In this document: piece by piece, positions 9,991 to 45,637 of the stretch
How the letters are laid out: every line of letters starts with the position of its first letter
Position numbering within the stretch: position 1 is the first letter of the stretch
NCBI GenBank assembly: GCA_964587655.1
Contig: CAZPMT010000001.1
Span: 17,459-81,458 of the forward strand
Length of the DNA stretch: 64,000 bases
DNA from: an uncultured Nitrospiraceae bacterium
Lineage (GTDB): Bacteria > Hydrogenedentota > Hydrogenedentia > Hydrogenedentales > SLHB01
Reading direction: 5' to 3'
Translations under genes and position numbers: made by a program
Notes under the pieces: generated by a model
Databases searched by the model: none
Told to the model about the DNA's origin: nothing
What the model saw: the letters and a program-made list of their open reading frames with translations, nothing else

Positions 9991-12900
9991 ATGCCTGCAT
10001 TGTTGGACGAGTATATATTCACAGGCGTAACGGGCAATGCGGCGTGGGCCGCCATCAAGACGGCGTGGGAAGTCGCCACTAAGAAGTCATGGGAACAGAT
10101 CTATCTCGACGCGTTCCCGAAGGCGCTTGCCGCTTCGAAGGAACAACCCAGGAAGTACACTGATGGCGCTGAGCCTTTATTGAATGGCGCCGCCCTGCAG
10201 CGCGCCATCACACGCGCGGCGGCGTCACCGCTTGCCGACCACGCTCTCACCGAGTTGACCGGGGATGCACTCGTGAAACATCTCGGGGCCGTCATGGCCG
10301 AGGAGCGGGTAATCGAGTTCGAGGGGAACAACCTGGCGGAGGAAGGATACGCACAGGTAGTGCGCAACCTCGTCCGCTCTGCCCATGCCGTCTTCTGGGA
10401 CGGTGTCGTGAAGAACGAGACGGCCTTCCGCAATGGCGTGTTCTTGGAGTTCCAGGCGAACCGCGCCCAACTACAAGACATCAAAGACGCCCTCTCTAAG
10501 CTCAGCCTGTTGAAAGCGCTGGACGAGAAACAGGATTACCAGACACGGCTTCTCGAGCGGCAGTCGCTTTCAATGGACGAGATCAAGGGTATTGTCTTGC
10601 GCATTGAAGAGCGCCTCGCCCGGAAATCCTTCGATAGGGAACTGGACGAGGTACTGCCTCCCGCGAAGCGAGAGCCTGCGGGTGCACCGAAGTTCGAAGC
10701 CGACTTCGTTCATGCCTATCCGCTGCAAGCGAACTTCACGGGGCGGAAAACGGAACGCCAGGCGCTTCTCGACGTGAAGTATGACGTTTTCGTCAGCTAT
10801 AGCCATAAGGACAAAGAATGGGTGCACGGACGGCTATTGCCCGGTCTGGAGAGATCGGGACTGAAGGTGTGCCTTGACTTTCGGGACTTTGAGCTGGGCG
10901 TTTCAGCGGCCATCAACATGGAGCGCGCAGTGCAGCAAAGCCGGAAGACCATTCTCGTGCTTACACCGAACTGGGTCGAAAGCGAGTGGACGGAATTTGA
11001 GTCCCTGCTGATCCAGACCAAAGATCCGGCAGGCCGGCGTCAACGCATGTTGCCGGTGATGCTCGAGGAATGCAGCCTGCCTGACCGTTTGAGCATTCTG
11101 ACGTATGCGGACTTCAGAAATGAACAGGATTGGGAGTTCCAACTCGAGCGCGTGTTGCGCACACTCTGTGTTGAAAGGACAACTGCTCCGCCAAGCGATA
11201 AGCTTCCCGTAGTCCAACCCATCATCCAGCCCGATTTTGTCCATCCGTATCCGCTGCAAGCTAACTTCACGGGGCGGAAGAAGGAACGCGGCGCGCTGAC
11301 GACGTGGTTTGTCCAGCGTGAGCAGCCGGTGTATGCCGTGGTCGCCATAGGGGGTATGGGCAAGTCGGCGGTAACGTGGGTGTGGGTGTTGCAGGATCTG
11401 CTGGGGCTGCGCACATTCACGAAGGAGGCGTGCGCGGTCGAGCAGGAGAACCGTCCCGAGGGGGTGTTGTGGTGGAGCTTCTATGACAGCAAGGCACGGT
11501 TTGCGTCGTTCCTAGATCGCGCGCTGGAATACGCGAGCGGCGGGGCCGTGGACCCGCGCGGGATACCGTCGGAACACGACAAGGCGGACAAGCTCATCGA
11601 CCTGCTCGAAAAGCGCGACATCCTCCTGGTGCTCGATGGGTTTGAGCGTGAACTCCGGGCGTATGCGAGTCTGAACGCGCCATACATGGGAGACGGTGAG
11701 GAAAGACACGAGGTCACGGAACAGCGCGTGTGCGTCGACCCGCACGCGGCCTACTTCCTCCAGTGGGCGGCGTCACTGCCGTTGCGGGGCCGGATCCTGA
11801 TGACGACCCGCCTCATGCCGCGCGATCTGGAGGGGAACGACGGCAATCCACTTGACGGCTGTGCGAATAACGAACTGAAAGGCTTCGACCCGGCCGATGT
11901 GGCGGCTTTCTTCCGCGCCGAGGGCATCAAAGGAATGCCATCCGAGATCAAGGCGGCCTGCGCTCCTTACGCATACCATCCACTCGCCGTTCGGCTGTTG
12001 GCCGGGGCGATCATCCGAGACAAACGCAAACCGCGGGACATTGAGACCGCCAAGCGGCACGTGGTCACGGCGGAACTGAAGGGCAAGGACAAGCATCACA
12101 TCCTGCAGGTGGCTTACGATGAATTGGCCGCGAAGCGCCGCAAAATCCTGAGCCAGATCGCCGCGTTCCGCAATCCCATGACCTTCGAAACCTTGGCGGC
12201 CGTGCTGCCCGTGAGCGGCGCACACGAACTGGAAGTCATCCTGGACGAGTTGGTCGAGCGCGGCCTGCTGCTCTGCAACGACGGCCTATACGACCTGCAT
12301 CCCGTCGTGCGGCAATATGCCTACGAACGGCTGACGGACAAGGAAGGCGTCCACACGCGCTTGCGCGACCATTTCAGCGCCGTGCCCATGCCGCAGGACA
12401 CGGAGAAGGTCAAATGCATCGAAAACCTCGACCCCGTGATCGAGCTGTACCACCACACGGTCCGGGCGGGGCAGTTCGACGAGGCCTGTGACGTATTCTA
12501 CGTGCGTCTCCAGGACGTTCTGTACTACCGCTTCGGGGCGTACGATCGCTGCATTGAACTCTTGTGCGCACTGTTCCCGGAGGGAGAGCCTTTGGTCAAA
12601 GACGGCCAGGCCAAGGTACCACGACTGACGAAGGAATCCGACCAAGCCTGGGCGCTGAACGCCCTTGCCTGCTGTTGCAGTGCGTCCGGCCAACCCCGGC
12701 GGGCTTTGCCGCTGTTTGAGCTACAGAACAAGCTCCGGGATGACGCAAAGGACGAGATGAATCTTGCCATTGGCCTGGAAAACTTGGCCTGTATGGCGCA
12801 ACTCCACCTCGGCCAACTGGGTGCTGCCGAAGAGAACCTCCGTCGGAGCATCGCCTTGTCTCGGGAGATTAGGGACGCGCTCGGGGTGGCTGACGCGTGC

Positions 12901-13578
12901 CAGAATTTGGGGCTGTTGCTGGCATGCCTGGGAGGGTTTGGTGAGAGCGAGACAGAATTGGACGCGGCGGTGCGGGGCTTCAAGGAGCAAGAAAAGACGC
13001 AGGGCGAGGGCATCGTTGAGTGCAGCCGCGCCCTGCGGGCCATCATCATGGGAGATGCCCAAGCCGCGTTGGCAGCCGCCCGTCACGCGCTGGAGTTGTG
13101 GCACAAGACGGCAAGAGAGAGATTCCGCTACGAGCGCGACCGCGTGCGGGTCGAGTGGTTGGTAGGCTGGGCGCTGACGGCCCTGGCGGAAGAGCGGCCG
13201 GGGGACGTGGCCAGTCTCCTTGCCGAGGCCGAACAGCATCTCACCGAGGCACTGACCCGTTGCCGGAACATCAACATGGTCGATCACGAGCCGGACATTC
13301 TCCTGGCTTGGGCGCGTTGGCATTTCGCGAAAGGGGACGCGGTTCGCGCGAGCCAGTGGGCTGCGGAGGCCCTATTCATCGCCGACCGGTGCGAGTACCG
13401 GCTGAAGCAGGCCGACATCCACAACTTCCTTGCGCGGCTTGCGCTTGATGCCGGTGACAAGGCCGCAGCACGAAGCGAAGCCGGGATCGCGAAGGAACGC
13501 GCTTGGTGCGACGGCCCACCGCATTGTTACAAACCCGCCCTCGATGAAGCCGAACGCCTGTTGAAAGAGATCGGGTAA
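9991..13578 (+). CDS. TIR-domain / STAND (NB-ARC-like P-loop NTPase) / TPR-repeat protein with ~250-aa unknown N-terminal domain; candidate defense or signalling NTPase
   Basis: TIR: YDVFVSYSHKDKEWVHGRLL...; P-loop AIGGMGKSAVTW, Walker B ILLVLDGFE; C-terminal TPR-like helical repeats; an intragenic direct repeat (10702-10759 / 11233-11290) brackets the TIR. Confidence 0.8.
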   Translation: MPALLDEYIFTGVTGNAAWAAIKTAWEVATKKSWEQIYLDAFPKALAASKEQPRKYTDGAEPLLNGAALQRAITRAAASPLADHALTELTGDALVKHLGAVMAEERVIEFEGNNLAEEGYAQVVRNLVRSAHAVFWDGVVKNETAFRNGVFLEFQANRAQLQDIKDALSKLSLLKALDEKQDYQTRLLERQSLSMDEIKGIVLRIEERLARKSFDRELDEVLPPAKREPAGAPKFEADFVHAYPLQANFTGRKTERQALLDVKYDVFVSYSHKDKEWVHGRLLPGLERSGLKVCLDFRDFELGVSAAINMERAVQQSRKTILVLTPNWVESEWTEFESLLIQTKDPAGRRQRMLPVMLEECSLPDRLSILTYADFRNEQDWEFQLERVLRTLCVERTTAPPSDKLPVVQPIIQPDFVHPYPLQANFTGRKKERGALTTWFVQREQPVYAVVAIGGMGKSAVTWVWVLQDLLGLRTFTKEACAVEQENRPEGVLWWSFYDSKARFASFLDRALEYASGGAVDPRGIPSEHDKADKLIDLLEKRDILLVLDGFERELRAYASLNAPYMGDGEERHEVTEQRVCVDPHAAYFLQWAASLPLRGRILMTTRLMPRDLEGNDGNPLDGCANNELKGFDPADVAAFFRAEGIKGMPSEIKAACAPYAYHPLAVRLLAGAIIRDKRKPRDIETAKRHVVTAELKGKDKHHILQVAYDELAAKRRKILSQIAAFRNPMTFETLAAVLPVSGAHELEVILDELVERGLLLCNDGLYDLHPVVRQYAYERLTDKEGVHTRLRDHFSAVPMPQDTEKVKCIENLDPVIELYHHTVRAGQFDEACDVFYVRLQDVLYYRFGAYDRCIELLCALFPEGEPLVKDGQAKVPRLTKESDQAWALNALACCCSASGQPRRALPLFELQNKLRDDAKDEMNLAIGLENLACMAQLHLGQLGAAEENLRRSIALSREIRDALGVADACQNLGLLLACLGGFGESETELDAAVRGFKEQEKTQGEGIVECSRALRAIIMGDAQAALAAARHALELWHKTARERFRYERDRVRVEWLVGWALTALAEERPGDVASLLAEAEQHLTEALTRCRNINMVDHEPDILLAWARWHFAKGDAVRASQWAAEALFIADRCEYRLKQADIHNFLARLALDAGDKAAARSEAGIAKERAWCDGPPHCYKPALDEAERLLKEIG

Positions 13579-13624
13579 CGCTTCGGCGGCGGACGTTGCC
13601 CTGCCGTAGCGTGCTGAACGCTGG

Positions 13625-13692
13625 TGGCGCGACGTTTCCAACGTCGCGGGGTAGCTGCCAGATCGAACTGCGACGTTGGAAACGTCGCGCCA
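13625..13692. terminator. 23-bp perfect inverted repeat (TGGCGCGACGTTTCCAACGTCGC / loop 22 nt) downstream of the TIR-STAND gene and convergent with the PIN operon; stem-loop, possibly a bidirectional terminator
   Basis: arms 13625-13647 and 13670-13692 are exact reverse complements; no T-run, so a rho-independent terminator is uncertain. Confidence 0.35.
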
Positions 13693-13776
13693 CTGTGAAT
13701 AGTTTGTCAAGTTATTTTGGCGCGCCGCCTAAGCGTCAATGAACGGCGAAAACGGAGCGCGAACGCGGCGTCCTCG

Positions 13777-38744: not shown

Positions 38745-39089
38745 ATGAAAACTCAACTTTGCCGTGCGGGACGGGGCCGTGACTTCACGTATCCCGTCAT
38801 CCTTGTGCTGCTTGGAGTGATGGGTTGCCTGCTGGTCTCCGTAAATGCCTTGGCGGCAACCGCCCCCTGCGTCAGTTCGTTGGGTCAGCTTCGGCAAATA
38901 AACACCAGCGGCCTTGCCGTGCATGCCATGTCAGCCGCCCTCGCACCAACCAGAGTGCTTGAGGTGCCGCCGGCGCACATCGAGGTATCGGCAGCGGCTT
39001 CATTGCCAACGACCGGCATTATTGGGCTCGCCATTGTCGCGGTAGCTTGCATCATCGCCGGCGCATTTATCATCCTCCGCCGCGAATAA
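38745..39089 (+). CDS. small secreted protein with C-terminal LPXTG-like sorting signal (SLPTTG + TM helix + RRE)
   Basis: N-terminal signal peptide; C-terminus LPTTGIIGLAIVAVACIIAGAFIILRRE; sigma70-like promoter TTGACG-N17-TACATT ~150 bp upstream. Confidence 0.4.
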   Translation: MKTQLCRAGRGRDFTYPVILVLLGVMGCLLVSVNALAATAPCVSSLGQLRQINTSGLAVHAMSAALAPTRVLEVPPAHIEVSAAASLPTTGIIGLAIVAVACIIAGAFIILRRE

Positions 39090-39266: not shown

Positions 39267-41258
39267 ATGGCTAAAGAAAGCCAGCCGTCCGTGCTCAATG
39301 GCGAAGAACTCGTCAAACAGGAAGTAATCACTCGAGAGGAACTGGCCAACGCCCACGCGCATGAAGCCGCTACGGGTACACCGTGGTACCGGCAGCTTCT
39401 CCAAACGAAGAAGATGAGCTTCGGCGCGCTCGAGGATATTCTGTTCCGCGAGTTCCATCCGCGCTCACTTCGTGACGAACATGCCCGCCTCGGCCAGACC
39501 CTCGTCAGTATCAAGGCAATCACTCAGAATCAGCTTACCCAAGCGTTGGCGGAACAAAGCCGCAGCGGACGGCTCTTGGGGAACATTCTCCTGGATCTTC
39601 GTCTCATAACGCGCGAGATGATGACGAAGGCCCTCGCCCGGCAGCACGGGATCGAATGTGCCGAATTAAAGAGCATGCCCAGCACCCCGGAAGCTCTCGA
39701 TTGTGTTCCTCGAAACGTGGCGCGCGACAACCTTATGTTGCCGGTCCGTATCGAGGGAGACAAACTAACCGTACTCATCCCCGACCCGCAGGTTCTGGAC
39801 CGTTTGCAGAAGGTCGGTATTCTGTTGGGTAAGCGGATTCATCCCGTCCTTACAACGGTGGAAGATATGGCGGCAGAGATTGCGCTCCGCTACGGAGGAG
39901 GTGTGAAGAGCCGCCCCGTCGAGGCGCCTCGCACGAAACCCGCAGTTCAGCAGATTACCAACGCAGCACAACCGCGACCGCCCAAGACGCCGGCACAGGC
40001 TGAATCGAAACCCCAACCAAAGGTGACCAAAATGGAAGAAACAAAACAAACAGCTTCAGAGAGTCAAGGGAAAGTCGATCTGAAACGTTTTGAGGAAATT
40101 GCGAGGGAAGCATCCGGCGTCCCGGTGATGAAACTTGTAACAACCATTATCGAAGGGGCGGTGAATTCAGGAGCAACGGACATCCACCTTGACCCGCAAG
40201 ACCCTGAAATGCGCGTAAGATACCGTATTGACGGCATTCTTCACGACATAATGAGTATTCCCGCCGAAGCGCAGAACGCGGTGATATCACGCATAAAGAT
40301 CATGAGCGACATGGATATCACCGAGACCCGGCATCCGCAGGACGGTCACATAAGCATGGAGGTGGCTAACCAAGAGTTCGATATCCGCGTCGCCACCCTC
40401 CCTACGTTTCTCGGCGAACGCGTTGTACTTCGCCTGCTTGACCAATCCACCGTGCTTTCCGGCATTAAAGACTTGGGTCTCGAATCGGATGATGAGAAGC
40501 GGCTTCGCAATATCATTGGCCAGCCATATGGAATGGTCCTTGTCACCGGGCCGACTGGGAGCGGTAAGACGACAACACTGTATGCCGCTCTTAATCAGAA
40601 GAACGTCATCACGGACAGTATTGTCACACTCGAGGATCCCATTGAGTATCAGCTCTCAGGCATAAACCAGGTCCAGATTGAATCGGACATTGACGTGACG
40701 TTCGCGACCACCCTGCGGGCAGCGTTACGACAGGATATTGATGTACTTCTTGTCGGTGAAATTCGCGACGTTGATACGGCGCGGATAGCAATTCGTGCTG
40801 CAATGACCGGGCACTTAGTGTTCAGCACGCTTCATACAAATGATGCACCCGAAGCTATCAGTACACTTAGAAACATGGGTATTCCGTCTTACCTAATCGC
40901 CAGTGCTCTTACCGCCGTTGTTGGCCAACGCCTTGTAAGAATGATTTGTCCTCATTGCAGAACGGAGTTTAAGCCCCCAAAGACGCTCCTTAAATCAGTC
41001 GGCTTACCCGAAACGACAAATGCGCTATTTCGAGGTGCAGGTTGTGAAGTTTGCTACCACACCGGATGTAAGGGTAGGACGGGCATATTTGAGATCTTAG
41101 AGGTGACACCCTCAATTCGGCGTATGATAGCAGTGGACGAATCAATAGAGAAGATAGCGCAAGCAGCCAAAGTTAAGACGCTTTCCGATCGATGCCGATT
41201 GAAGCTCAAGGAAGGTGTAGTAGCGCCTGAAGAGTTCTTCCGAACCATTAGAATGTGA
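39267..41258 (+). CDS. GspE/PilB-family type II secretion / type IV pilus assembly ATPase with N-terminal GspE_N domains and C-terminal tetracysteine motif
   Basis: Walker A LVTGPTGSGKTTTLYAAL; Asp box and His box regions; CPHCR...CEVCYHTGC zinc motif. Confidence 0.8.
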   Translation: MAKESQPSVLNGEELVKQEVITREELANAHAHEAATGTPWYRQLLQTKKMSFGALEDILFREFHPRSLRDEHARLGQTLVSIKAITQNQLTQALAEQSRSGRLLGNILLDLRLITREMMTKALARQHGIECAELKSMPSTPEALDCVPRNVARDNLMLPVRIEGDKLTVLIPDPQVLDRLQKVGILLGKRIHPVLTTVEDMAAEIALRYGGGVKSRPVEAPRTKPAVQQITNAAQPRPPKTPAQAESKPQPKVTKMEETKQTASESQGKVDLKRFEEIAREASGVPVMKLVTTIIEGAVNSGATDIHLDPQDPEMRVRYRIDGILHDIMSIPAEAQNAVISRIKIMSDMDITETRHPQDGHISMEVANQEFDIRVATLPTFLGERVVLRLLDQSTVLSGIKDLGLESDDEKRLRNIIGQPYGMVLVTGPTGSGKTTTLYAALNQKNVITDSIVTLEDPIEYQLSGINQVQIESDIDVTFATTLRAALRQDIDVLLVGEIRDVDTARIAIRAAMTGHLVFSTLHTNDAPEAISTLRNMGIPSYLIASALTAVVGQRLVRMICPHCRTEFKPPKTLLKSVGLPETTNALFRGAGCEVCYHTGCKGRTGIFEILEVTPSIRRMIAVDESIEKIAQAAKVKTLSDRCRLKLKEGVVAPEEFFRTIRM

Positions 41259-41259
41259 G

Positions 41260-41933
41260 TTGCTTTATATCTTATCCAAACAGCGGAGTTTGAGGCCTAG
41301 TGTCGTTCTGTTAGTAACCTGTGGAAAACTGGCCTTTTCTTCACTTTGATGGTGCTATCTTACTTGTCGCTACTAAGACGCAAGTTCCTGAAATTATTCA
41401 TGTTATCAAGTTATCAAACAGAAAGAATGGATTTTAGTATATTAACGGAACTCGTTTTACCACAGTAGTTTAACTGACAGTATCTTCTACTAGATGAAGG
41501 TTATATTCTACAGGAGATTATGGTTCCACGGGATGTGAATACATGTTGCAGTTGATTTAAGGAAATCGCCATTTCTCAACAAAAAGAGCCTTGTTGATAA
41601 CTAGAAGAAACAGTATGAAACATAAAGGTACAGCGCTTTCACGTAAATGCTGCTGTCAATATATAATAAAGGAAGCACATATCCACAGCAAAAAATGAAA
41701 AGTGGCGTTAATAAAGGTACATCAAGAGAGATGTAAAGATTGATCTACACAAAAGAGAGAAAACCTGATCAATCATTCAATAATAATCCACAATCTATCT
41801 TTCGAAATCGAAACAGGTTACAATACTTATCCAAAGATTTTCAGACACTACTACTAAGACTACTTGTTTTACATATCGTCATTGATCATAATATGCATCG
41901 CAATCCACACAGGAGAAACGAGGGAGACTTAGA
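41260..41933. other. 670-bp AT-rich non-coding region with six DnaA-box-like 9-mers (TTATCCACA, at most 1 mismatch) immediately upstream of dnaN; candidate oriC
   Basis: boxes at 41272-41280 (TTATCCAAA), 41320-41328 (rc TTTTCCACA), 41679-41687 (ATATCCACA), 41784-41792 (TAATCCACA), 41827-41835 (TTATCCAAA), 41901-41909 (CAATCCACA); GC ~37% vs ~65% for the window. Confidence 0.4.
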
Positions 41934-43040
41934 ATGAAGATACATATTCCACGTCAGGATCTTCTTGACAAGGTAAATCAGGTGAAGACGGTTGTTTCAT
42001 CTAAGTCGGCGCTCCCGATTCTCTCTCACATTCTCATGGAAACACAGGAGAGCGCCGTTCGTCTTTCGGCAACTGATTTGAAAGTGAGTATTGAGTCCGT
42101 TGCTGATTGCTCAGTTGATGAAGCAGGTTCTCTTACGGTTTCTTCTCAGCGCTTAGCGATGATTCTTGCCGAGCTTCCAAATGCTGACATTACGTTGGAA
42201 CTGGCAAAGAACAATGTTGTTACTCTTACGTGTGGAAGAATTAAGACGAAGTTGTTTAGTATGGCGCCGGAGGAATTTCCGCCACTAAGAACATTTGATA
42301 ATATCGAGCCGTTGGTATTATCGCAATCGATGCTTTGTGGTATGTTCGCAAAGACGTCTTTCGCTATATGCTCCGATCAAGCTCGCTATAACTTGACGGG
42401 GATTCTTTTCGAGATTAAAGATGGAAGATTGATTGTTGTAGCGACGGATGGGCGTCGGATGAGTCTTTGTGTGGAAACAGATGGAGTGCCAAAGGGTGTA
42501 AATGTAAAGGTTATTATTCCAGGGAAAATGGTAGCTGAACTTGAACGCCTATTGGGTAGCGATGGTGATGTCTCCGTTTATATCGATGAGTCGCAAACAG
42601 CATTCGCGTTTAATTCAGCGCGCTTGGTCACAGCCCTTATAGAAGGCAACTTTCCTAACTATGAGATGGTGGTTCCAAAAAAGCATGACAAGGAAGTATT
42701 AATAAGTACCGCTGTCTTAACAGAAGCAGTTCGTCGTACGCGGACAATGACGAACGATAAGTTTAACTCGGTGCGATTTGTTCTTGTAAGTGGTTCAATG
42801 ACGTTGAAGGTAGTCACGCCCGAAGTAGGTGAGTACGAGGAAGAAATCCCTGTCGAATATGATGGAGAAAGAGTTGAGATTGCCTTTAACCCTGATTTTG
42901 TTCTCGATATTCTTCGCCATATAGAGACGGAAATGCTCTGTCTTATTCTAAAGGATACGACAAGCCCTGGTGTCGTGAAACCATATGCCGAAGCGCCTCT
43001 TGATTCCTATGTCAATGTAATTATGCCTATTCGGCTGTAA
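41934..43040 (+). CDS. dnaN: DNA polymerase III beta subunit (sliding clamp)
   Basis: MKIHIPRQDLLDKVNQVKTVVSSKSALPILSHILMETQ... three-domain beta-clamp pattern, 368 aa; strong RBS AGGAGAAACGAGGGAG. Confidence 0.85.
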   Translation: MKIHIPRQDLLDKVNQVKTVVSSKSALPILSHILMETQESAVRLSATDLKVSIESVADCSVDEAGSLTVSSQRLAMILAELPNADITLELAKNNVVTLTCGRIKTKLFSMAPEEFPPLRTFDNIEPLVLSQSMLCGMFAKTSFAICSDQARYNLTGILFEIKDGRLIVVATDGRRMSLCVETDGVPKGVNVKVIIPGKMVAELERLLGSDGDVSVYIDESQTAFAFNSARLVTALIEGNFPNYEMVVPKKHDKEVLISTAVLTEAVRRTRTMTNDKFNSVRFVLVSGSMTLKVVTPEVGEYEEEIPVEYDGERVEIAFNPDFVLDILRHIETEMLCLILKDTTSPGVVKPYAEAPLDSYVNVIMPIRL

Positions 43041-43044
43041 CTTA

Positions 43045-44304
43045 TCATGATGATTGATCTGAACTATTGCTGCTTTTCAACATGTTTGCAATTGTAGCGG
43101 CAAATTTTGCTATTATCTTTTCCCGTTCATAGAAATCCGCTTGCTTAAGTGTATTTAGCTGCCATTCCAAGATAGTGTCTGTCTTCTCAGCTATTTCCAT
43201 TAGTAAGACTGACATCTGCTGCGCTGTCTTCCAATCGATACAGGGGCCGAGATTATTATCGCGTATTTCGCAACCAAGAGGACTGTCTGCATCACATACC
43301 GCCAATATGGGAGTACCGGATGTAATTCCCGCAATTATTTTGGAAGGAATGAACGAACTCTTACTTGCACCCTTTTCCGTGATTACAAACAAATCGGTTT
43401 TATGTAGTGCAGCCGCAAACGCTGACTCATCCAAGAAAGGCCCAAATGTAAAGCGTGAATCTTGTACAGCATCAATCCAAGACTCAACCGAGAATGCTTC
43501 AGATCCATTTCCATAAACTGCAAACTCAAACGGCATGGTGCTCTTCTGTAACATCTTACAAAAACAAAGTAGGTCCTGTTTTTCGCCTATATTCCCTGCA
43601 TATAGAAGACGGATAGGTTGATTAGGTGAACGCCCAATCTTAGACGGCAGTTTACGAATCTCCTCCGCCAACGAAGCATTAAGCCAATTCGGCAGATATA
43701 GAATTTGCTGATTTCGCTGGCGAAACTGCTCTAATCGCGTAACCATAGCCGGTGATATTGTGCTCCAGACATCTGCTCGGTTGAATAGAAATCGTTGCAC
43801 TGAATCTAAGATCCCCGGAACAAACTTTCCTGTTGCAATGCCGCTTGCCGCTGCGGCATCTGCCGAAAGATCCTGCACATTAAGCCAGAGCGGCTTACCA
43901 TAAATGAGCTTGTTTATTGCTGCAAAACCCACGGCGCCGACAAGTGGACAATAGGTCATAACCAGATCGAAAGCTCGTCCGCCTGGAAGAGACCTAATCA
44001 ATGACAGAAAGAACGATGCTTCATAGAAAAGCCGTTGAACAAAGGAACCGGGCTTGCTTGGAATGAAGATTCCATAACGTTCGACATGTACGCCCTTTTC
44101 CTCATATCGTTGAACTCTCAACCCATTCTTCCCGCTCTTATCCTTCCATTCCGGATAGTATGGATAGACACAACGAACTGTAACATCGTAGCCGCGTTCG
44201 ACCAGTCCATAACAAAGGTCGCTGAAGATTGCACCTCCCCCGCCCCGATCGGGGCTGAACACATTGACAATAATGAGCAGGCGCGGCTTGTCTCTTGTGA
44301 CCAT
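43045..44304 (-). CDS. glycosyltransferase family 4 protein (WbuB-like); low-GC (~43%)
   Basis: Glyco_trans_4-like N-terminus (LLIIVNVFSPDRGGGG) and GT1-type C-terminal domain. Confidence 0.75.
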   Translation of the reverse strand: MVTRDKPRLLIIVNVFSPDRGGGGAIFSDLCYGLVERGYDVTVRCVYPYYPEWKDKSGKNGLRVQRYEEKGVHVERYGIFIPSKPGSFVQRLFYEASFFLSLIRSLPGGRAFDLVMTYCPLVGAVGFAAINKLIYGKPLWLNVQDLSADAAAASGIATGKFVPGILDSVQRFLFNRADVWSTISPAMVTRLEQFRQRNQQILYLPNWLNASLAEEIRKLPSKIGRSPNQPIRLLYAGNIGEKQDLLCFCKMLQKSTMPFEFAVYGNGSEAFSVESWIDAVQDSRFTFGPFLDESAFAAALHKTDLFVITEKGASKSSFIPSKIIAGITSGTPILAVCDADSPLGCEIRDNNLGPCIDWKTAQQMSVLLMEIAEKTDTILEWQLNTLKQADFYEREKIIAKFAATIANMLKSSNSSDQSS

Positions 44305-44461
44305 GAATCTTCCTTAACCTGTATGTCGATTCAAGCAAGCTCTATTCTTACAGACGGACGTGGCTCTCGTCCATGTTTGGATCGCCATAACTATTCTGCA
44401 TTTCAATCGACGGTTGATTTTTGCTAGAGTACATTATAATCGGGTTCAGGAGGATATAGTG

Positions 44462-45637
44462 ATGACAGTGACCATTCTTGCAGTCCTGCTAGCCGTTGCA
44501 GGCGCGGATAGTAACGCAGCCGCCCAAAAGGCAACAACCGCGGAGGAAACGTCAATGCTGAAGTTTGAAAAGATACGCATCGGAACCGTGACCTATGAAG
44601 CCGGCGCGGTATTTGACGTAAACAATGACGGTATTCTCGATATCGTCTCGGGTGAGTACTGGTTTGAAGGGCCGGACTTCCAAAAACAGCACAAGATCTG
44701 CGATATCCAACGGGTGGACGATTACTACGACGACTTCAGCGACTATCCTATCGATGTCAACGGCGACGGGTATCTCGACATCGTCACCGGCGGCTGGTGG
44801 GGCGAGACGCTTCGCTGGCGTGAGAACCCGAAAGGACAGATCGTCGAATGGAAGGCCCATGACATCGGTAAGACAGGCAGTATTGAGCGCGCCTGCTTTT
44901 GGGACATCGATGGCGATGGAAACGTGGAGGTCGTGCCTAACTGCCCAGGAAAGCCATTCGTCGCGTTTAAGCTTGACCGCGATGCAGCCGGAAAAGGCGC
45001 GGGAACGTTCAAGAGATTCGTGTTGTCTGATATTCCTCAGGGTCATGGTCTCGGTTTCGGAGACATATCCGGAAGCGGACGCGGGGACATCGTCAGTGCC
45101 GGCGGATGGCTTGAAGCGCCGGCCGACCGATGGAATGGCAAGTGGGAATGGCATCCCGAATTCAATTTTGGCGGCGCCAGTGTGCCTATCCTGGTCCATG
45201 ATGTAAACGGTGATGGGCTCAACGACATCATCGTAGGCCAGGGCCACGACTATGGTCTCGCGTGGTGGGAACAGCGCAAGGACGGCGAGGGCAAGCGCAC
45301 CTGGATTAAGCACGACATCGATCCGAACCGCTCGCAGTATCACGATATGCAGTTGGTCGACATTGACAACGACGGCCAACTGGAACTGATTACCGGCAAG
45401 AGGTACCGTGCGCATCAGGAGAACGATCCCGGTTCGCTCGACCCGATCGGAATCTACTATTTTAAGATCAACGGCGGCAACTTCGTCCGAAACACGATCG
45501 ACTATGGACCCGCCGGAAAAGCCAGCGGCGCCGGCATATACTTCTGGGTACAGGACATCGACGGCAACGGATGGAAAGACGTCCTTGCCCCAGGCAAAGA
45601 CGGATTGTTCTTGTTTAAGAATCTCGGCCCGAAATAG
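44462..45637 (+). CDS. secreted FG-GAP repeat (integrin-alpha-like beta-propeller) protein
   Basis: signal peptide MTVTILAVLLAVAGA; repeated DxNxDGxxDIV FG-GAP motifs; GGAGGA RBS. Confidence 0.6.
   Translation: MTVTILAVLLAVAGADSNAAAQKATTAEETSMLKFEKIRIGTVTYEAGAVFDVNNDGILDIVSGEYWFEGPDFQKQHKICDIQRVDDYYDDFSDYPIDVNGDGYLDIVTGGWWGETLRWRENPKGQIVEWKAHDIGKTGSIERACFWDIDGDGNVEVVPNCPGKPFVAFKLDRDAAGKGAGTFKRFVLSDIPQGHGLGFGDISGSGRGDIVSAGGWLEAPADRWNGKWEWHPEFNFGGASVPILVHDVNGDGLNDIIVGQGHDYGLAWWEQRKDGEGKRTWIKHDIDPNRSQYHDMQLVDIDNDGQLELITGKRYRAHQENDPGSLDPIGIYYFKINGGNFVRNTIDYGPAGKASGAGIYFWVQDIDGNGWKDVLAPGKDGLFLFKNLGPK

Follow-up and report, generated by a model that had tools for sequence, protein, structure and literature searches.

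The window analysed here is a stretch of 64,000 nucleotides of metagenomic DNA (contig CAZPMT010000001.1), and the subject of this report is an AT-rich, non-coding gap immediately upstream of dnaN that is very probably the chromosomal replication origin (oriC) of the source organism and conserved as such across its phylum. DnaN homologues at 58-94% identity all came from metagenome assemblies of Candidatus Hydrogenedentota, some of them mislabelled "Nitrospiraceae", and the next-best phyla (Elusimicrobia and Omnitrophota) reached only ~35% identity. Judged by these protein similarities, the source organism is a Candidatus Hydrogenedentota bacterium and belongs to a phylum that, to our knowledge, has no cultured representative. 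The succession of a gspE-type gene, a gap of 650-850 bp and dnaN was found in ~40 of 52 related Hydrogenedentota loci. The gap and its neighbours form a trough in GC content, for which a first-pass annotation of the same DNA had offered origin-proximal composition, horizontal acquisition or a chimeric assembly join as explanations. The identities given to gspE and dnaN in that annotation agree with the Pfam matches, and the locus is organised as follows.

39267-41258, plus strand: gspE/pilB-type secretion ATPase of 663 aa (Pfam MshEN and T2SSE), the conserved left neighbour of the candidate origin
41259-41933, no strand: candidate oriC, 674 bp of non-coding DNA at 35.5% GC, with a box array, DnaA-trios, an unwinding element and the dnaN ribosome-binding site
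41934-43040, plus strand: dnaN, DNA polymerase III beta sliding clamp of 368 aa (Pfam, three clamp domains), vertically inherited
43045-44304, minus strand: GT4-like glycosyltransferase of 419 aa (Pfam, N-terminal GT4 domain only), convergent with dnaN
44360-45637, plus strand: FG-GAP repeat protein (Pfam), whose first ~100 codons form the graded right edge of the trough
40300-44850, no strand: GC trough, with GC below about 0.53 in the composition profile and graded edges on both sides

The GT4-like gene occupies this position in the closest relatives only. Genes of 29 different families take the place downstream of dnaN across 43 loci.

DnaA boxes and a predicted unwinding module

The gap contains exactly six 9-mers within one mismatch of the canonical DnaA box TTATCCACA, on both strands (starting at 41272, 41320, 41592, 41679, 41784 and 41827), as the first-pass annotation had counted. 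The expected number is 0.21; dinucleotide shuffling gave a maximum of three, and none of 2000 shuffles reached six. When two mismatches were allowed, 11 boxes were found against 2.7 expected from the same kind of shuffles. The array does not run up to the ribosome-binding site of dnaN, as had been stated, since one-mismatch boxes stop at 41835, ~100 nt short of the ATG, and only the two-mismatch CAATCCACA abuts that site. The elements of the gap, with box distances counted from the dnaN ATG, are listed below.

41272-41280, plus strand: DnaA-box-like TTATCCAAA, one mismatch, at -662, the sole box of the window off the positions conserved in the phylum
41320-41328, minus strand: DnaA box TTTTCCACA, one mismatch, at -614, the conserved -612/-603 position, inside the conserved block TGTTAGTAACCTGTGGAAAACT
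41523-41541, no strand: conserved element GTTCCACGGGATGTGAATA, two box-like half sites in inverted arrangement, seen in k-mers and alignment
41592-41600, minus strand: DnaA box TTATCAACA, one mismatch, at -342, orthologue of a near-universal box at -333
41679-41687, plus strand: DnaA box ATATCCACA, one mismatch, at -255, orthologue of a conserved plus-oriented box at about -246
41784-41792, plus strand: DnaA box TAATCCACA, one mismatch, at -150, orthologue of a conserved plus-oriented box at -150/-162
41827-41835, plus strand: DnaA box TTATCCAAA, one mismatch, at -107, the box of the predicted basal unwinding module
41848-41865, minus strand: DnaA-trios, reading CTA CTA CTA AGA CTA CTT on the plus strand and 3'-GAT GAT GAT TCT GAT GAA-5' on the minus strand
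41866-41900, no strand: AT-rich candidate DNA unwinding element GTTTTACATATCGTCATTGATCATAATATGCATCG, from the stability scan and from relatives
41901-41909, plus strand: weak DnaA box CAATCCACA, two mismatches, at -33, just before the ribosome-binding site (GGGAG, 41922-41926)

The same motif dominates the phylum. In a count of 9-mers made without any prior in the 750 bp upstream of dnaN in 44 Hydrogenedentota loci, the most frequent was TGTGGATAA, the reverse complement of TTATCCACA, with 66 copies in 33 loci, followed by TGTGGAAAA in 22 loci. Box density in three 250-bp bins upstream of dnaN (45 loci) was 1.4-1.9 per 250 bp against a background of 0.048, a 30-40 fold enrichment. Box orientation switches within the gap, with 132 minus and 10 plus between -750 and -250, and 61 plus and 26 minus between -250 and 0. 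Boxes recur at -612/-603, -333, -286, -246, -181, -162/-150, -108 and -30 from the ATG, and five of the six one-mismatch boxes of the window, together with the two-mismatch box at -33, fall on these positions. The near-universal -333 box is a perfect TGTGGATAA on the plus strand in many relatives, and some carry a perfect box at -30/-31. Aligned with five relatives, the boxes stand out as conserved islands within an otherwise diverged gap. In three of the six boxes of the window the mismatch is a C-to-A change (TTATCCAAA twice and TTATCAACA); speculatively, these changes and the lack of any perfect box would fit a strong local AT pressure in this clade.

The unwinding system described for Bacillus subtilis, termed the basal unwinding system (BUS), consists of DnaA-box 6/7, DnaA-trios and an AT-rich region upstream of dnaN (PMC6669920, PMC8287927), and its dependence on box orientation has been stated (PMC6669920). 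The published search rules (PMC8287927) accept a box with at most two mismatches, a spacer of 0-16 bp (mode 13, peak 10-13) and at least three consecutive 3'-NAN-5' trios, with 3'-GAT-5' preferred beside the box; a tandem box pair occurs in 57% of predicted systems and is optional. The window agrees with these rules in its box (one mismatch), spacer, trios and polarity. The spacer of 12 nt (41836-41847) lies within the published peak, and a degenerate second box, ATTTTCAGA, in the spacer region is at the allowed limit of four mismatches. The first three trios are perfect GAT and two more fit NAN, with a fourth between them (3'-TCT-5') that lacks the central A. The trios begin 86 nt before the dnaN ATG in the window and 82-90 nt before it in most of 47 related loci, and they are followed by GTTTTACATAT in the window and by GTTTTA in relatives. 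Clear tandem box pairs are present in the relatives L045, L047, L044 and L027. The module of L047 reads TTATCCACTTTTCCACAggcc CTA CTA TTA CTT CTA CTT gttttacatataaaa, that of L045 is alike, and both are presumably close to the B. subtilis sequence.

Duplex stability and polarity agree with this placement. In a nearest-neighbour scan the least stable 40-mers of the whole window all lie in 41.39-41.90 kb. The segment 41855-41894 is the second least stable 40-mer of a 40-45 kb scan (-43.6 kcal/mol); a coarser scan of the whole window in 10-nt steps gave a mean of -59.6 and a minimum no lower than -43.7. The box of the module is in the TTATCCACA orientation and the unwinding element lies 3' of it, as for R1 and the 13-mers of Escherichia coli. 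The E. coli reference for this comparison, a 77-mer, was checked against E. coli genomes: it had 100% identity in the best matches listed, at least 99% identity in 4,480 genomes, and was present in 5,425 of 5,426.

By analogy with the B. subtilis and E. coli systems, DnaA would occupy boxes at fixed positions, mostly TGTGGATAA on the plus strand in the left part of the gap and mostly TTATCCACA in the right part. DnaA bound at 41827-41835 (-107) would nucleate a filament of ATP-DnaA that engages the minus-strand 3'-GAT-5' trios at 41848-41865, and the adjoining AT-rich DNA at 41866-41900, about 35-85 nt upstream of the dnaN start, would then open and allow the helicase to be loaded. Through the weak box at -33, DnaA may have a second role in controlling dnaN.

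Strand composition was compared on the two sides of the site. The phylum-average GC skew is negative in all 500-bp bins from -10 to -3.5 kb and positive from about -1 to +10.5 kb. In paired comparison, skew was higher downstream than upstream in 26 of 30 loci (Wilcoxon p = 1e-5), and a side effect of +0.028 (bootstrap 95% interval 0.015-0.042) was obtained with gene orientation controlled.

The gene for the initiator itself was sought by the signature of DnaA domain IV, RDH[ST]T[VIL]. In Omnitrophota, Elusimicrobia and Chloroflexia loci, used as a positive control, the signature placed dnaA directly upstream of dnaN. It was missing from the 64-kb window, in agreement with the first-pass annotation, and from the 10 kb on either side of dnaN in every Hydrogenedentota locus, with ~0.9 Mb of related loci covered; a dnaN gene set apart from dnaA is therefore characteristic of the phylum.

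Further motifs were noted in and around the gap. The k-mers GTTCCACG and CGTGGAACA of the conserved element at 41523-41541 occur in 18-22 of 44 loci. In many relatives GTTCCACG...GTGAATA (41523-41541 in the window) and, ~80 nt further on (~41612-41620), GTGAAACA/GTGGAACA bracket the -333 box. The GTTCCACG element resembles parS half-sites and was considered as such, but a scan with TGTTNCACGTGNAACA (up to three mismatches) returned two distant matches at chance level and the candidate was rejected. Two 10-nt stretches towards the left end of the gap recur exactly, in direct orientation, in the box-trio module (CTTATCCAAA at 41271-41280 and 41826-41835; CTACTAAGAC at 41370-41379 and 41851-41860); they are probably due to chance or the trace of a degenerate second module. 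An Rfam scan of 38-46 kb at permissive thresholds found no RNA family, and a promoter and terminator scan of 41.0-43.3 kb found no excess over shuffles and no assignable dnaN promoter.

About half of the Hydrogenedentota species carry a second box cluster in an AT-rich gap at +1.1 to +1.6 kb from the dnaN start (for example L006, L016, L020, L022, L025, L029, L032, L044 and L049). This cluster consists of 2-5 boxes at 10-17 times the background density, and 53 of 57 such boxes share one orientation. It suggests that in these species the origin is bipartite, with parts on both sides of dnaN. No boxes of a second cluster were found at 43040-43600 of the window, where the GT4-like gene abuts dnaN.

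The GC trough around dnaN

The trough is graded on both sides and expressed mainly at third codon positions. Elsewhere in the window GC is 0.57-0.65. Inside gspE it falls gradually, as first described, from 0.57 at 39.3 kb to 0.49 at 41.0-41.2 kb, and GC at third codon positions (GC3) per 100 codons runs 0.65, 0.66, 0.53, 0.63, 0.57, 0.42, 0.48. The profile is at 0.33-0.37 in the gap and at 0.40-0.49 through dnaN and the GT4-like gene. The low GC reported for these three parts was thus confirmed, with the gap at the 35.5% given above, dnaN at 44.0% (GC3 0.41; first and second positions, GC1 and GC2, 0.54 and 0.37) and the GT4-like gene at 45.6% (GC3 0.42). Flanking genes have about 60% GC, GC3 of about 0.68-0.75 and GC1 of 0.60-0.66. 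GC3 is lowered by ~0.3 over roughly 4.5 kb, while GC1 and GC2 are lower by just 0.05-0.1. On the right, the abrupt return to ~60% at 44360 that had been reported proved to be a gradient: GC stays at 0.48 to ~44.7 kb, is 0.53-0.58 at 44.55-45.0 kb and attains 0.6 only past 45.75 kb, and GC3 is still at 0.51 in the first 100 codons of the FG-GAP gene.

A comparable dip is found throughout the phylum. In ~40 loci, each normalised to its own far flanks, the mean GC deviation was -0.18 in the gap, -0.08 in dnaN and -0.12 just past dnaN, returning to zero by ~-3.5 kb and ~+4 kb, and in the central bins it was negative in all or nearly all loci. Because the downstream gene belongs to so many families, the dip follows position and not gene identity. 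A crude GC3 profile had the same shape (about -0.08 to -0.13). The difference between dnaN GC3 and flank GC3 averaged -0.10 (sd 0.09), with extremes of -0.27 in the window and -0.32 in L085 (85% DnaN identity). dnaN GC3 is similarly low in the window, in L082 (0.38) and in L085 (0.40), and the trough is older than the split of these lineages.

Substitutions between the window and L082, polarised with L085 as outgroup, were close to balanced in the core of the trough: GC-to-AT changes numbered 22 and 28 in dnaN against 34 and 22 AT-to-GC changes, and 33 and 33 against 39 and 26 in the GT4-like gene. The core of the trough is therefore at a compositional equilibrium of its own. At the edges the balance leaned towards AT, the corresponding counts being 31 and 23 against 11 and 7 in the FG-GAP gene, and 36 and 30 against 25 and 18 in gspE.

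A block of such composition would ordinarily raise the suspicion of foreign DNA, and the 3' end of gspE, dnaN and the GT4-like gene could have arrived as an island or by homologous replacement from a donor of lower GC. The block lies 15-16 GC points under its flanks with GC3 lower by 0.27-0.31, and it includes a gene limited to the closest relatives and of a kind, the glycosyltransferases, that is commonly mobile. The edges are nevertheless graded on both sides and lie within conserved genes, not at gene borders; no tRNA was found near the trough by tRNA scan, and no integrase or transposase domain in the neighbouring genes by Pfam. The synteny of gspE, gap and dnaN is phylum-wide, the GT4-like gene alone being limited to the clade, and a milder trough is present in nearly all species whatever gene lies downstream. 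The high-GC N-terminal half of gspE, the low-GC C-terminal half and DnaN all have the same nearest relatives (first L085-87, next L004, and after it L013 and L005), and these are high-GC genomes, whereas the known low-GC Hydrogenedentota are among the most distant in the similarity ranking. The trough is moreover common to three diverged members of the clade and at substitution equilibrium. The horizontal acquisition of a dnaN/GT4 segment, as raised in the first-pass annotation, is very improbable on this evidence and was rejected.

A sharp difference in GC inside one metagenome-derived contig is also a classic warning sign of a chimera, and two same-strain Logan contigs from other runs stop inside the low-GC zone. 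These contigs, L001 and L002, agree with the window at 99.96-100% over 41330-44055 and 41397-43227, a part of the trough. There is no abrupt boundary at which two organisms could have been joined, and across the gradient gspE remains one intact 663-aa open reading frame in which T2SSE is matched at full length. L082, an ENA contig of another sample with 86% DNA identity, is collinear over 39603-45636, the entire trough, and L085-L087, from three samples, have the same order of gspE, gap, dnaN, GT4, FG-GAP, two GT1 genes and DHDPS. With the order gspE, gap and dnaN recurring in ~40 species-level genomes besides, a chimeric join is excluded for practical purposes. A further alternative is that low GC belongs to dnaN and its neighbours as genes, through amino-acid composition or codon usage, and not to their position. 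The somewhat low GC1 and GC2 of dnaN would fit, as would some Hydrogenedentota without a GC3 deficit in dnaN and the outgroup dip described below, which is confined to dnaA and dnaN. Weighed against this, the deficit in the window is mostly at third positions (GC3 0.41 against 0.72, GC1 0.54 against 0.60-0.66), GC3 shifts gradually with distance from the gap inside gspE, the GT4-like gene and the FG-GAP gene, and the dip spans the first 1-3 kb downstream in spite of the 29 gene families found there. We consider a gene-specific cause unlikely.

In the outgroup loci L054-L074 (Omnitrophota and Elusimicrobia), which have the classic dnaA-dnaN arrangement, a GC dip of 5-12 points was observed from -2 to +1 kb of the dnaN start. 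It is limited to dnaA and dnaN and recovers right after dnaN, whose GC3 falls short of that of the flanks by up to 0.21. An enrichment of coding DNA in AT close to the origin may thus be widespread.

The low GC around the origin is an inherited, distance-dependent feature of the phylum, residing mainly at synonymous sites and deepest in this clade, and the origin-proximal composition named among the first explanations is upheld by a trough that recurs in about 40 species irrespective of the downstream gene. As to its cause, we prefer to think that a genome-wide force raising GC, either selection or GC-biased gene conversion, is weak near the origin and leaves the DNA nearer to its AT-biased mutational equilibrium. 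This would fit a core balanced at an AT-richer equilibrium and GC-rich edges with the customary surplus of GC-to-AT changes. Alternatively, the surroundings of the origin may be selected for a duplex of low stability or for an AT-binding nucleoid protein. Going beyond this, we tentatively put forward as possible that the origin imposes a kilobase-scale, distance-dependent synonymous AT shift on adjoining coding DNA and is bipartite around dnaN in roughly half of the phylum. If true, this would represent an undescribed local evolutionary regime at origins, caused perhaps by a suppression of recombination or of GC-biased gene conversion, by damage to DNA while it is single-stranded, or by selection for low duplex stability or nucleoid-protein binding across several kilobases. 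We found no description of kilobase-scale GC troughs at origins in the literature, the coverage of which was incomplete, so that this is weak evidence of novelty. Should the graded GC3 trough prove general, it would offer a natural experiment on what sets bacterial GC content.

Some features of the window lie away from the trough. A smaller GC dip (0.52-0.53) at 38250-38700 is apparently non-coding and lies between the open reading frames 37868-38233 (minus strand) and 38745-39089, the latter a small one upstream of gspE. The plus strand encodes at 9991-13578 a TIR-domain protein of 1195 aa with TPR repeats, which may serve defence or signalling, directly followed by the sole tRNA of the window (tRNA-Gly, anticodon TCC, 13604-13696, plus strand). 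A 1320-aa protein encoded at 33891-37853 on the minus strand combines an unusual mix of six PASTA domains, one BACON domain and a C-terminal FGE-sulfatase domain.

Origin or regulatory region

An oriC upstream of dnaN with dnaA absent from the locus, as proposed by the first-pass annotation, is strongly supported by the phylum-wide box array, the unwinding module, the least stable DNA and the sign change of the average skew. Several observations weigh against this reading. No box of the window is a perfect TTATCCACA, of which most relatives keep 2-6 copies. Nor does the window display a clean skew V: a minimum at 41.3-41.9 kb, suggested at the outset as a check, is not clearly seen, the cumulative skew having a local minimum at ~40-41 kb and a deeper one at ~57-58 kb, and the downstream genes of the window have negative skew on both strands. 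No bias in gene orientation was found around the site. The phylum-average skew could be partly inflated by kinship among the loci, and it covers +/-10 kb and not the whole chromosomes of the complete genomes OY782877.1 and OW818658.1. The gene dnaA was seen nowhere in the 64 kb of this genome, and we infer that it is present and located elsewhere. With regard to the trough, three relatives (L011, L025 and L032) have dnaN GC3 at or above that of their flanks, and part of the total GC deficit of dnaN reflects amino-acid composition.

Clusters of DnaA boxes have other uses as well, and the boxes upstream of dnaN might form a DnaA-dependent regulatory or titration region for this gene, the true oriC being elsewhere, for example beside dnaA. 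Precedents are the boxes of the dnaA promoter, datA in E. coli and the DnaA-box clusters of B. subtilis. The lack of a dnaA gene nearby and the lack of a clean skew minimum in the window would both fit, and the weak box at 41901-41909, which overlaps the zone of the dnaN ribosome-binding site and promoter and has a perfect counterpart at -30 in relatives, fits an added transcriptional role. A regulatory region would, on the other hand, be atypical in having 6-10 position-fixed boxes over 650 bp, a switch in their orientation, a box-spacer-trio arrangement and the least stable DNA. The phylum-average skew changes sign at this very site with gene orientation controlled, and origins linked to dnaN with dnaA elsewhere are established in cyanobacteria (PMC4674748). 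We consider a purely regulatory or titrating role improbable. That 41259-41933 is the oriC of this Candidatus Hydrogenedentota bacterium, with dnaA elsewhere in the genome and the flanking low GC an inherited origin-proximal feature, is in our estimate about 85% probable.

The origin reading would provide the Hydrogenedentota with a well-supported oriC, comprising a box consensus, a box map, an unwinding module and a likely melting site. No description of a Hydrogenedentota oriC was found in the literature, again with incomplete coverage and hence as weak evidence of novelty. The phylum would be a second deep lineage, besides the cyanobacteria, in which the origin has stayed with dnaN and dnaA has moved away, and in which the box-trio module persists. 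The locus further illustrates that a low-GC block with a core replication gene need not mean foreign DNA or misassembly, which matters for the curation of metagenome assemblies and for island-finding tools.

Comparison with known origins

The gap would work as a canonical DnaA-dependent origin that includes a basal unwinding module. It resembles the oriC of E. coli in how the flanking box is oriented towards the unwinding element and in having two box sub-arrays of opposite orientation. The E. coli origin itself is situated between gidA and mioC, a long way from dnaN. The Hydrogenedentota gap differs further in having trio-type elements, no 13-mer repeats and no evident role for GATC or SeqA.

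As in the BUS of B. subtilis, one strand of the predicted module carries in succession a box, a short spacer (12 nt in the window), repeated 3'-GAT-5' trios (at least three in the window), AT-rich DNA and dnaN. Unlike in B. subtilis, the Hydrogenedentota module is not bordered by dnaA on its far side, and in the window the second box is degenerate (four mismatches) and the fourth trio lacks the central A. The second box cluster of about half the Hydrogenedentota species recalls the bipartite origins that flank dnaA, namely incAB/incC of B. subtilis and oriC1/oriC2 of Helicobacter pylori (PMC3479198), in that boxes are placed on both sides of an adjacent replication gene; this gene is dnaN in the Hydrogenedentota and dnaA in B. 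subtilis and H. pylori.

In gene context the candidate origin has a parallel in the cyanobacteria, for example Cyanothece ATCC 51142 and Synechococcus elongatus, in which oriC lies upstream of dnaN and dnaA elsewhere (PMC4674748). In both groups the origin, or candidate origin, is the intergenic region immediately upstream of dnaN, and boxes of the TTTTCCACA type occur in the Hydrogenedentota also (at 41320 in the window, and as the k-mer TGTGGAAAA in 22 loci). The dominant box of the Hydrogenedentota is, in contrast, the canonical TTATCCACA and not TTTTCCACA. Their left neighbour is fixed as the gspE-type ATPase, and the boxes are many more, forming a predicted, position-conserved array of nine. 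A second cluster downstream of dnaN, carried by about half of the Hydrogenedentota species and missing from the window, likewise sets their candidate origin apart from that of the cyanobacteria.

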